A DNA stretch of 64,000 nucleotides, from the NCBI RefSeq assembly GCF_024298765.1, contig NZ_CP101210.1; one strand, given 5' to 3'. Origin of the DNA: Escherichia coli (GTDB lineage Bacteria; Pseudomonadota; Gammaproteobacteria; Enterobacterales; Enterobacteriaceae). Of the stretch, positions 4,218 through 55,078 are shown piece by piece. Every line of letters starts with the position of its first letter. Position 1 is the stretch's first letter. The notes under the pieces are model-generated. The model was not told the DNA's origin. It worked only from the letters and a program-made list of their open reading frames with translations, and did not search any database. The translations under genes were made by a program, and so were the position numbers.

Positions 4218-4289
4218 GTGCGGCTTTACCGCATACCAATAACGCTTCACTCGAGGCGTTTTTCGTTATGTATAAATAAGGAGCACACC

Positions 4290-4430
4290 ATGCAATATGC
4301 CATTGCAGGGTGGCCTGTTGCTGGCTGCCCTTCCGAATCTTTACTTGAACGAATCACCCGTAAATTACGTGACGGATGGAAACGCCTTATCGACATACTT
4401 AATCAGCCAGGAGTACCCAAAAATGGATAA
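4290..4430 (+). CDS. cIII: CIII (FtsH inhibitor), 46 aa here because of an in-frame TAA
   Basis: [46 protein letters not shown] then TAA at 4428..4430. Confidence 0.85.
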   Translation: MQYAIAGWPVAGCPSESLLERITRKLRDGWKRLIDILNQPGVPKNG

Positions 4431-35949: not shown

Positions 35950-36025
35950 TGGTGGGTCGTGCAGGATTCGAACCTGCGACCAATTGATTAAAAGTCAACT
36001 GCTCTACCAACTGAGCTAACGACCC
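35950..36025 (-). tRNA. lysQ: tRNA-Lys (UUU)
   Basis: Reverse complement is GGGTCGTTAGCTCAGTTGGTAGAGCAGTTGACTTTTAATCAATTGGTCGCAGGTTCGAATCCTGCACGACCCACCA; symbol assigned by order. Confidence 0.93.
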
Positions 36026-36058
36026 CTTGCGGGATTATGCTGCTTTAATCATTCAGGA

Positions 36059-36134
36059 TGGTGGGTCGTGCAGGATTCGAACCTGCGACCAATTGATTAA
36101 AAGTCAACTGCTCTACCAACTGAGCTAACGACCC
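36059..36134 (-). tRNA. lysZ: tRNA-Lys (UUU)
   Basis: Identical 76-nt tRNA-Lys sequence; symbol by order. Confidence 0.93.
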
Positions 36135-36182
36135 ATACGGGTGTTACCTGAAAGATTTCTACTCGGAACCAATGTTTAAAAT

Positions 36183-36258
36183 TGGTGGGTCGTGCAGGAT
36201 TCGAACCTGCGACCAATTGATTAAAAGTCAACTGCTCTACCAACTGAGCTAACGACCC
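36183..36258 (-). tRNA. lysY: tRNA-Lys (UUU)
   Basis: Identical 76-nt tRNA-Lys sequence; symbol by order. Confidence 0.93.
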
Positions 36259-36261
36259 GAG

Positions 36262-36337
36262 TGGTGGGTGATGACGGGATCGAACCGCCGACCCCCTCCT
36301 TGTAAGGGAGGTGCTCTCCCAGCTGAGCTAATCACCC
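36262..36337 (-). tRNA. valZ: tRNA-Val (UAC)
   Basis: Reverse complement is GGGTGATTAGCTCAGCTGGGAGAGCACCTCCCTTACAAGGAGGGGGTCGGCGGTTCGATCCCGTCATCACCCACCA. Confidence 0.93.
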
Positions 36338-36388
36338 GATACTGCGCTGGATACTACAAACTACTTCCACCGAACCCACAGTAATTAG

Positions 36389-36464
36389 TGGTGGGTCGTG
36401 CAGGATTCGAACCTGCGACCAATTGATTAAAAGTCAACTGCTCTACCAACTGAGCTAACGACCC
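36389..36464 (-). tRNA. lysW: tRNA-Lys (UUU)
   Basis: Identical 76-nt tRNA-Lys sequence; symbol by order. Confidence 0.93.
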
Positions 36465-36466
36465 GG

Positions 36467-36542
36467 TGGTGGGTGATGACGGGATCGAACCGCCGACCCC
36501 CTCCTTGTAAGGGAGGTGCTCTCCCAGCTGAGCTAATCACCC
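36467..36542 (-). tRNA. valT: tRNA-Val (UAC)
   Basis: Identical 76-nt tRNA-Val sequence; symbol by order. Confidence 0.93.
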
Positions 36543-36577
36543 GATACTACGCTGGATACTACAACTAACTATGTTAG

Positions 36578-36595
36578 TGGTGGGTCGTGCAGGAT
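36578..36595 (-). pseudogene. Orphan 3' fragment of tRNA-Lys (last 18 nt ATCCTGCACGACCCACCA) in the lysT-valT spacer
   Basis: tggtgggtcgtgcaggat matches only the 3' end of the tRNA-Lys genes; upstream sequence is unrelated. Confidence 0.7.
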
Positions 36596-36677
36596 GACTC
36601 GACTTCGTCTCGCCCTTCGGGCCGTTGCTGACGCAACGTTATCCTTCACGTTTTACTACCGCGTCCACCTTAGCGAT

Positions 36678-36753
36678 TGGTGGGTCGTGCAGGATTCGAA
36701 CCTGCGACCAATTGATTAAAAGTCAACTGCTCTACCAACTGAGCTAACGACCC
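36678..36753 (-). tRNA. lysT: tRNA-Lys (UUU)
   Basis: Identical 76-nt tRNA-Lys sequence; first gene of the operon. Confidence 0.93.
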
Positions 36754-36917: not shown

Positions 36918-37709
36918 TTACATCGCGTTCAGACGTTTTTGCGCCTGTTTAGCGCCATCAGTACCAGGGTATTTACTGATAACCTGCTGGTATACGGCTT
37001 TCGCTTTTGCGGTGTCACCTTTGTCCTGCATGATGACGCCGACTTTAAACATCGCATCTGCAGCCTTCGGTGACTTCGGATAGTTTTTCACTACCGAAGC
37101 AAAATAATACGCCGCATCATCTTTTTTACCCTTGTTGTAGTTTAACTGACCCAGCCAATAATTGGCGTTTGGCAGGTAAGTTGAATCAGGGTAATTTTTG
37201 ATGAAATTCTGAAATGCCACCATTGCGTCATCCTGGCGGGATTTATCCTGCACCAGCGCAATAGCTGCATTGTAATCCGTGTTTGCATCACCGCTTTTCA
37301 CCGGCGCGCCAGCATTCGCAGTACCAGCATCAGCTGTCGGCGTCGTTGATGCCGCCACACCGCTTTGATCGCCGCTGGTTGATTGCGCCGCTGCACCACC
37401 GCTGCTGAGGCTGTCGATCTGCAACAGGATCTGCTTTTGCCGCTCCACGACCTGATTCAGTTGATACTGATTTTCCTGAATCTGACCACGCAGGGAATCA
37501 ATATCGGATTGATTATCAGAGAGTTGTTGCTGGAGTTGGGTTAAAAGCTGGCTGTGAGCATTAGAAATACGCTCAAGTTGAGTGACGCGGTCTTCGACCG
37601 AGCCTGAGCCGACACTACTGATTGGTGCCTGAGCAAAAGCGGCCCAGGGGGCCGCTATACCAACCAGTAACGACAGACTCAATAGTTGATGTCTGAAGTT
37701 ACTGCTCAT
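36918..37709 (-). CDS. cpoB: CpoB (YbgF) TPR periplasmic protein
   Basis: 263-aa ORF with signal peptide, coiled coil and C-terminal TPR. Confidence 0.93.
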   Translation of the reverse strand: MSSNFRHQLLSLSLLVGIAAPWAAFAQAPISSVGSGSVEDRVTQLERISNAHSQLLTQLQQQLSDNQSDIDSLRGQIQENQYQLNQVVERQKQILLQIDSLSSGGAAAQSTSGDQSGVAASTTPTADAGTANAGAPVKSGDANTDYNAAIALVQDKSRQDDAMVAFQNFIKNYPDSTYLPNANYWLGQLNYNKGKKDDAAYYFASVVKNYPKSPKAADAMFKVGVIMQDKGDTAKAKAVYQQVISKYPGTDGAKQAQKRLNAM

Positions 37710-37718
37710 GCAATTCTC

Positions 37719-38264
<546 letters not shown>

Positions 38265-54904: not shown

Positions 54905-55078
54905 TGTAGGCCGGATAAGGCATTCACGCCGCATCCGGCGCTGTTTGCCTGATGCGACGCTTGCGCGTCTTATCAGGCCTACGGTTTCTGCATTTCTTTT
55001 GTAGGCCGGATAAGGCGTTCACGCCGCATCCGGCACTGGTTGCCTGATGCGACGCTTGTGCGTCTTATCAGGCCTGGG
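54905..55078. repeat. REP/BIME cluster in sdhB-sucA intergenic region
   Basis: Two copies of gtaggccggataaggc..cacgccgcatccggc..gcctgatgcgacgctt..gcgtcttatcaggcc units. Confidence 0.85.

Follow-up and report, generated by a model that had tools for sequence, protein, structure and literature searches.

RtT elements were first seen downstream of the tRNA genes tyrT and tyrV. In Escherichia coli K-12, the tyrT/tyrV region gives four matches of 133–138 bits to the RtT family, and its annotation includes a tiny tpr ORF and a 171-nt rttR (b4425), whose 5′ end lies 8 nt past the tyrV CCA and whose 3′ end coincides exactly with the CCA of a tRNA-Tyr fragment. A repeated tRNA 3′ end is also part of the classic post-integration layout, in which an insert separates an intact tRNA from a second copy of its 3′ end, the direct repeat beginning in the T loop. 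Spacers of tRNA precursors can themselves give rise to regulatory RNAs, of which 3′ETS-leuZ is an example.

Here we examine a repeated tRNA 3′ end in a spacer of the lysT operon of an E. coli strain, within a 64,000-nt stretch of DNA (the window). The operon comprises seven tRNA genes on the minus strand, from 36753 down to 35950 (ARAGORN), and its lysT-valT spacer is 135 nt long. We consider it likely that the repeated end is the 3′ terminus of a 100-nt short-form RtT unit that is linked to a tRNA, transcribed within the tRNA precursor, derived from a tRNA and dispensable. The element is ordinary and known in kind, the RtT family being already curated in Rfam.

The lysT-valT spacer and the RtT family

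The genes of the operon and the parts of the spacer are located in the window as follows.

36678-36753, minus strand: lysT, tRNA-Lys(UUU) (ARAGORN; Rfam tRNA 79.2 bits)
36678-36695, minus strand: upstream copy of the direct repeat, the last 18 nt of lysT
36578-36677, minus strand: assigned short-form (5′-truncated) RtT unit, 100 nt, made up of an 82-nt core and the 18-nt tRNA-Lys end (RF00391; exact gap in strain IHE3034)
36651-36677, minus strand: variable 5′ leader of the unit, AUCGCUAAGGUGGACGCGGUAGUAAAA (alignments and minimum-energy fold)
36578-36595, minus strand: orphan copy of the tRNA-Lys 3′ end, 18 nt, exact
36543-36577, minus strand: residual lysT-valT spacer, 35 nt, CUAACAUAGUUAGUUGUAGUAUCCAGCGUAGUAUC, the entire spacer where the element is absent
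36467-36542, minus strand: valT, tRNA-Val(UAC), the next gene of the operon (ARAGORN)
36389-36464, minus strand: lysW (ARAGORN)
36262-36337, minus strand: valZ (ARAGORN)
36183-36258, minus strand: lysY (ARAGORN)
36059-36134, minus strand: lysZ (ARAGORN)
35950-36025, minus strand: lysQ (ARAGORN)

The sequence TGGTGGGTCGTGCAGGAT occurs exactly six times in the window, at five tRNA-Lys 3′ ends and as the orphan at 36578-36595, and it had no match in any of 100 dinucleotide-preserving shuffles. Read on the RNA strand, the orphan is AUCCUGCACGACCCACCA, which begins with the final two bases of the T loop and continues through the 3′ strands of the T stem and the acceptor to the discriminator and CCA. 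Both the identity of the 18-mer with the tRNA-Lys 3′ ends and its division into T-stem 3′ half, acceptor 3′ strand and CCA, as given in a preliminary description of this DNA, are thus borne out. The small gccc-ttc-gggc stem pointed out there is real as well (36612-36622) and corresponds to helix P3 below. Of the coordinates 36578-36676, the start was correct and the end one base short, the element being 36578-36677. The remaining claims fared less well. The preceding ~80 nt had been called unrelated; these 82 nt are the conserved RtT core (RF00391), common to the tyrT and Arg-tRNA operons of E. coli. A scan for a tRNA-like fold had also been suggested there; neither ARAGORN nor Rfam RF00005 detected a tRNA in the spacer (36543-36677). 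We therefore rejected a tRNA or pseudo-tRNA reading, as no cloverleaf was returned by either program.

RF00391 (RtT, the tyrT "rtT" element) matched positions 36578-36746 on the minus strand with 60.6 bits (Rfam threshold 45), in an alignment that laid the 5′ half of the model on lysT itself. Searched alone, the spacer scored 42.5 bits, just below 45, as a 5′-truncated match to model positions 51-130; the spacer copy is without the 5′ 40% of the model. The spacer stretch GGAUAACGUUGCGUCAGCAACGGCCCGAAGGGCGAGACGAAGUCGAGUCAUCC tracks the RF00391 consensus almost base for base, and the core aligns base for base with the tyrT RtT units. Other features of the family were likewise found. The unit begins at the base next to the lysT CCA, on the same strand and inside the tRNA transcription unit, with valT 35 nt further on; all 18 bases of its tRNA-end copy, including CCA, equal the upstream lysT 3′ end; and alignments and pair counts recover the core hairpins and junction sequences of RF00391. 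No significant similarity was found between the 5′ part of the unit and tRNA-Lys positions 1-58. In this subtype, GGUGG of the leader can pair with the 3′ CCACC; the leader is not conserved across subtypes.

Compared with the tyrT RtT or 178-bp repeats (RF00391, rttR b4425), the window unit shares the core of P2, the GCCCGAAGGGC hairpin, P4 and GAGUMAUCC. It also shares the position just downstream of a tRNA on the same strand, the exact copy of the tRNA 3′ end with CCA, and the arrangement as repeated units between direct repeats. However, it is 100 nt long rather than ~171-178 nt and lacks model positions 1-50, which comprise the GGGGAAGGAUGAGAA..AAGGUUCGA segment and the following hairpin; it is therefore a short form. 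Furthermore, it carries a tRNA-Lys rather than a tRNA-Tyr end, lies between two tRNA genes rather than after the last, and has the tpr frame without a proper start. Phage and genomic-island tRNA sites resemble it in having a direct repeat of the tRNA 3′ end beginning in the T loop, but here there are no mobile-element genes and the insert is an 82-nt structured core found at many tRNAs. Like 3′ETS-leuZ, the element would be a by-product of processing of a polycistronic tRNA precursor; unlike such tRNA-spacer RNAs, it is a member of a repeat family and terminates in a tRNA-like CCA. Finally, AaHKsRNA22 of Aggregatibacter (RF02902) presents the same order of GAACG, hairpin, G-CCC(C)-loop-GGG(G)-C, GAG, hairpin and GAGUA. 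Its model nevertheless scored 13.4 bits here and 24.7 bits on a Rhodanobacteraceae copy against a threshold of 39.8, and it has no tRNA 3′ end.

Several other Rfam matches were noted in the window. Just upstream of the tRNA operon, as in K-12, lies the CpoB/ybgF intercistronic RNA thermometer (37680-37818, minus strand; 153.7 bits). A YrlA (Y RNA-like) match over two of the tRNA-Lys genes (35974-36114, minus strand) reached 44 bits against a threshold of 69 and is probably an effect of tRNA likeness. Further away are a phage lambda cIII thermoregulator (4277-4335, plus strand; 88.5 bits), which indicates a lambdoid prophage at that end of the window, and two adjacent naRNA4 matches (nucleoid-associated RNA, REP-type repeats; 54909-55074, plus strand; 79.6 and 86.8 bits).

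A predicted four-helix fold closed by the tRNA-Lys end

The fold was derived from an alignment of 22 short and medium units. Fifteen have a tRNA-Lys end (E. coli, an Escherichia sp., two Citrobacter, Pluralibacter, Edwardsiella and Pseudescherichia) and seven a tRNA-Arg(ACG) end (E. coli, Citrobacter, two Enterobacter, Brenneria and a metagenome-assembled genome). RNAalifold, run on the 22 units, returned the same four helices (P1–P4) as the structure drawn by hand. In the window these are placed as follows.

36641-36650, minus strand: P1 5′ strand, CGUGAAGGAU (90.5% paired, 22 sequences)
36623-36638, minus strand: P2 hairpin, CGUUGC-GUCA-GCAACG (RNAalifold, fold and pair counts)
36612-36622, minus strand: P3 hairpin, GCCC-GAA-GGGC (anchor of the genome scan)
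36601-36609, minus strand: P4 hairpin, GAC-GAA-GUC (pair counts)
36586-36595, minus strand: P1 3′ strand, AUCCUGCACG, the first ten bases of the orphan 18-mer
36578-36585, minus strand: tail, ACCCACCA, ending in CCA

This predicted four-helix fold, closed by the 18-mer, is backed by compensatory changes. Among the 22 units, 95% of cells were paired, compared with 27-48% when the 3′ partners were slid by 1-3 columns. Changes on both sides occurred at six pairs, and no shuffle attained the observed values. At P1 pair 11-72, every Lys unit has U-A and every Arg unit has G-C; this switch with tRNA type indicates that changes in the tRNA-derived 3′ strand are matched in the 5′ strand. At pair 13-70, the Arg units have G-C, and 14 of the 15 Lys units have a conserved A·G mismatch. 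The P1 5′ strand CGUGAAGGAU looks like GCAGG, the 5′ strand of the T stem, with three further bases that pair into the acceptor 3′ strand. When P1 5′ strands were set against their own and foreign 3′ fragments, the own fragment was clearly better in Tyr, Arg, Gln and short-form Lys units; the same test was weak in many long forms, where the partner is the T-stem 5′ strand.

Variation in the internal hairpins was assessed over 161 distinct family members. P2 took the form of 104 different hairpins, with a mean of 5.9 bp as opposed to 3.2 in shuffles, and P4 that of 82 different segments (3.3 versus 1.8 bp); P4 pair 51-58 occurs as GC, AU, CG, UA and UG. P3 was nearly invariant across members, which were found with a pattern that fixes P3. 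The Rfam consensus pairs UUCG with CGAA, a pairing that we found unsupported because GAA-to-GUA variants are uncompensated; P3 was thus taken as a local hairpin. The single-sequence fold, at -35.5 kcal/mol (z = -2.2), is modestly better than shuffles. Within the stems, G·U pairs (14) were in weak excess over A·C (7), and on this count RNA-level and DNA-level structure are not separable.

Copy number and distribution of the units

Among E. coli strains, the lysT operon contains from zero to five RtT units. K-12 has one in each of its four long spacers (after lysT, lysW, lysY and lysZ), all of the short form, and a fifth past the lysQ terminator. The fifth is a long form that duplicates the 18-nt tRNA-Lys end and the whole 36-nt terminator; in the K-12 lysQ region (2184-2345 of the compared locus), two identical terminators lie 155 bp apart, while the window strain has one. 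The preliminary description had proposed the K-12 spacer as a reference, and the unit there is an ortholog, with three or four base differences from the window unit and five units in the operon instead of one. The window strain has kept the first of these five and is missing the other four. Its three other spacers are 98-100 nt shorter than those of K-12, the breakpoints coinciding exactly with the CCA of the tRNA and that of the fragment, and its operon at 35950-36464 contains no RtT units, having one terminator after lysQ and no fifth unit. RefSeq applies the label "RtT sRNA" to the K-12 fifth unit only; the spacer units, including this one in a strain whose sequence equals that of the window, are unlabelled.

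In strain IHE3034 the operon has no unit anywhere. Exactly these 100 nt are missing, with the breakpoint at the 18-nt direct repeats, and the lysT CCA is followed directly by CTAACATAG... in a spacer of 35 nt. Genome counts were based on BLAST coverage of at least 80%. By this measure, the lysT-valT unit (181-nt spacer query) is present in 4,015 of 5,426 complete genomes (~74%) and the K-12 operon layout in 1,063 of 5,426. In a quantile sample, ~23% of genomes, IHE3034 among them, matched only from the 18-mer onward. Conservation in all reference strains, with no processing role, had been named in the preliminary description as a refuting condition; the fragment is not so conserved, and the condition applies imperfectly. 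Citrobacter werkmanii and C. youngae have an orthologous lysT-unit-valT arrangement with ~93% identity, including the leader and the trailer and flanks. The presence of an ortholog in two Citrobacter species favours loss in the strains without the unit. The unit is therefore probably ancestral, and its absence would be the result of precise deletion between the 18-nt direct repeats.

To survey the family, we scanned one genome per species with the pattern CCCGWAGGGYGA-N6-20-GARTMATCC and obtained at least 120 loci; since this pattern fixes P3 and the GARTMATCC junction, it misses divergent members, and covariation in P3 is not judgeable from its matches. Matches came from many Enterobacterales as well as from Thioalkalivibrio, Halieaceae, Sedimenticola, Marinobacterium, Alteromonas, Marinobacter, Chromatiales, Rhodanobacteraceae and Gilliamella. 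Among the matches listed, 105 cores have an upstream tRNA on the same strand, and 86 of these carry at least 17 nt identical to its 3′ end; the remaining 19 carry near-copies of the upstream tRNA end with one to a few mismatches. The upstream tRNAs belong to at least ten anticodon classes (Tyr-GUA, Lys-UUU, Lys-CUU, Arg-ACG, Gln-CUG, Gln-UUG, Ser-GGA, Ser-CGA, Pro-CGG and Pro-UGG). Hafnia, Budvicia, Alteromonas and Sedimenticola have a divergent local tRNA-Lys, and the fragment there shows the same differences.

Other arrangements were also observed. Between Arg-tRNA(ACG) genes there are RtT units of medium length, for example in E. coli SCPM-O-B-8794 (locus 2456-2810), and in such units the P1 5′ strand GCACCAGGGAGGAU is complementary to nearly the whole 3′ fragment AUCCUCCCGGAUGC. 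In Photorhabdus, Pluralibacter and Edwardsiella, a core copy is followed by a conserved ATCCTCACGTACT..GTACGCTCC and no tRNA 3′ end. A Rhodanobacteraceae metagenome-assembled genome contains at least eight dispersed copies of the P2-P3-P4 module with no tRNA nearby. Several of these copies lie between ~20-bp inverted repeats (GTCATTCCCGCG... / ...CGCGGGAATGAC; GTCATTCCCGCGCAAGCGGGA ... TCCCGCTTGCGCGGGAATGAC) and look like a miniature transposable element. The dispersed tRNA-less copies gave no Rfam match at threshold and only a weak match to AaHKsRNA22.

Origin, RNA fate and significance

Long units offer a possible explanation of how the tRNA-derived ends arose. In these, the stretch that abuts the core on its 5′ side corresponds to the local tRNA up to exactly the base that precedes AUCC, with the tRNA broken at position 58 in Lys, 67 in Tyr, 59 in Pro, 73 in Ser and 56 in Gln. 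In Photorhabdus caribbeanensis (NZ_RCWB01000021.1, 5438-7870), 14 tandem 174-bp units stand behind two normal tRNA-Lys genes, and Rfam calls all 14 RtT (80-89 bits). Thirteen of the 14 could be parsed; in each, a 64-nt insert lies between positions 1-58 and the final 18 nt of tRNA-Lys, and a 35-nt spacer follows that is the same as that behind the normal tRNA-Lys genes. ARAGORN misses these interrupted copies until the insert is removed; after its removal in silico, all 13 parsed units were recognized as tRNA-Lys(UUU), with 2-6 substitutions, often G1 to A. Interrupted tRNA-Lys units are present in P. cinerea and P. namnaonensis too.

The short form of the window retains a T-stem-like 5′ strand, P2-P4 of the module and the 18-mer, but neither the tRNA body nor the insert's first hairpin. 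The T-stem-like strand of short Lys units reads GAAGG versus GCAGG in the tRNA, and that of Arg units is an exact GGAGG. By homology with the long forms, the short form appears to descend from one interrupted in the T loop. An RtT unit would then be a copy of the local tRNA gene with a structured ~64-nt module lodged after position 58 in its T loop, and in the window unit almost none of the tRNA body upstream of the insert would be left. For the family as a whole, we tentatively put forward, as a possibility that we rate somewhat doubtful, that RtT units are remnants of tRNA copies split at a fixed T-loop site (after nt 58, UUCGA|AUCC) by a ~64-nt module that is, or once was, perhaps mobile. 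This reading is suggested by the same module at that site in Lys, Tyr, Pro, Ser and Gln tRNA copies and by filled and empty tRNA-Lys genes lying side by side in the 14-unit Photorhabdus array; that the module may be mobile is suggested by the related module in the dispersed, inverted-repeat-flanked Rhodanobacteraceae elements. We found no description of a T-loop insertion or of the dispersed-element module in the searchable literature, a search that did not extend to the older primary papers, and this reading of the family may be new.

The preliminary description had favoured a relic of partial duplication or unequal crossover within the seven-gene operon, which would have left a stray tRNA-Lys end and filler. 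Part of this stands: the tRNA-Lys end is duplicated, the 18-mer equals the neighbouring gene ends, the trailer past it resembles the lysW-valZ spacer, and recombination at the repeat accounts for gain and loss, with exact presence or absence in IHE3034, K-12 and the window strain. A one-off event is what the data speak against. RtT units in many genera, as well as those of tyrT and the Arg-tRNA operon, share homology with the 82 nt, Citrobacter has an orthologous copy, and the hairpins covary; given that the core recurs at tyrT, in Arg-tRNA operons and with ten anticodon classes, we regard a one-off relic of the lysT operon as extremely improbable. A scar of an integrative element that once used the T loop and 3′ end of tRNA-Lys, with the 18-mer as the displaced original end, would account for the sequence of intact tRNA, insert and 3′-end repeat starting in the T loop. 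Yet only 82 nt lie between the repeats, with no integrase, phage genes or credible ORF; the same core is present four times in the K-12 operon and behind other tRNAs, with the matching 3′ end each time; and long forms also carry the T-stem 5′ strand, which is not an integration product. An attachment scar is thus very unlikely. In a separate scan of viral contigs, most matches were chance matches in GC-rich coding DNA and the few true RtT resembled host tRNA flanks, and a phage origin was rejected.

The assignment to a short-form RtT unit leaves room for a function of the RNA, whether as a stable trans-acting RNA (in the stringent response or as a sponge) or as a cis-acting guide or timer of precursor processing. 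Core and structure are kept across orders of Gammaproteobacteria, and RtT homologues appear on Actinobacillus Northern blots (PMC4986893). In Klebsiella, Rfam-based annotation lists four RtT RNAs (166-170 nt) under neighbouring locus tags, and their expression changes (PMC4147364); their length matches Rfam matches of the lysT-operon type, which suggests that they lie in the lysT operon. Secondary citations link rtT RNA to the stringent response. On the other hand, the unit is missing from about a quarter of E. coli genomes and varies from zero to five copies per operon, the window copy is without the 5′ 40% of the tyrT RNA, no target or partner is known, and no stable spacer species has been reported in K-12 (PMC4176162). 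Such a function is improbable for this unit, though less remote than a scar or a relic. The element itself is dispensable for the operon, and any function is at most modulatory.

Coding and transcriptional roles were considered as well. Two small ORFs lie in the element (36574-36649, minus strand; from the ORFs overlapping 36500-36720), neither with a credible start, and peptide coding was rejected. One encodes 26 arginine-rich amino acids from a GTG start; the other, 20 amino acids from a TTG start, has RQRPEGR in common with the tyrT Tpr because the core is homologous, and the Tpr start region is missing. No promoter-like site was found in the element. A terminator role was also rejected, the sole terminator-like match being P2 on the wrong strand, at chance frequency.

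According to the preliminary description, remnants of this kind can act as RNase processing sites. Mapping of the K-12 lysT operon assigns primary cleavage to RNase P; RNase E cleaves within the 133-150-nt spacers only if RNase P is inactive, and 3′ trailers are removed by RNase II and PNPase and then RNase T (PMC4176162). Probing of the K-12 spacers revealed large intermediates only, in RNase mutants, and no stable spacer species was described (PMC4176162). For the window unit, we propose that RNase P would cut at the valT 5′ end and that 3′ exonucleases would trim the 35-nt trailer back to P1 and CCA. The same trimming would account for the exact CCA end of the 171-nt tyrT rtT RNA. A by-product RNA of ~100 nt would be left, with CCA as the end of a single-stranded tail; judging from this analysis, the chance that it would be detectable as a discrete RNA is about even. 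At the DNA level, the lysT 3′ end and the orphan 18-mer together make a direct repeat that lets the unit be lost precisely, and the same kind of repeat allows units to be gained or lost elsewhere in the operon.

Given that about one quarter of E. coli genomes lack the unit and that the operon works without it, the element matters little in the window itself. The 18-nt repeats give rise to a length polymorphism of the operon (zero to five units) that can confuse assembly, primer design and the interpretation of Northern blots, and the spacer copies carry no label in standard RefSeq annotation. The published processing study treated the 133-150-nt spacers as plain spacers (PMC4176162), and methods that capture RNAs by their CCA ends could pick up RtT units. 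If the wider pattern of a fixed T-loop site across many tRNA families and of arrays of complete interrupted tRNA-Lys genes is borne out, it would open an old unexplained repeat to direct tests.
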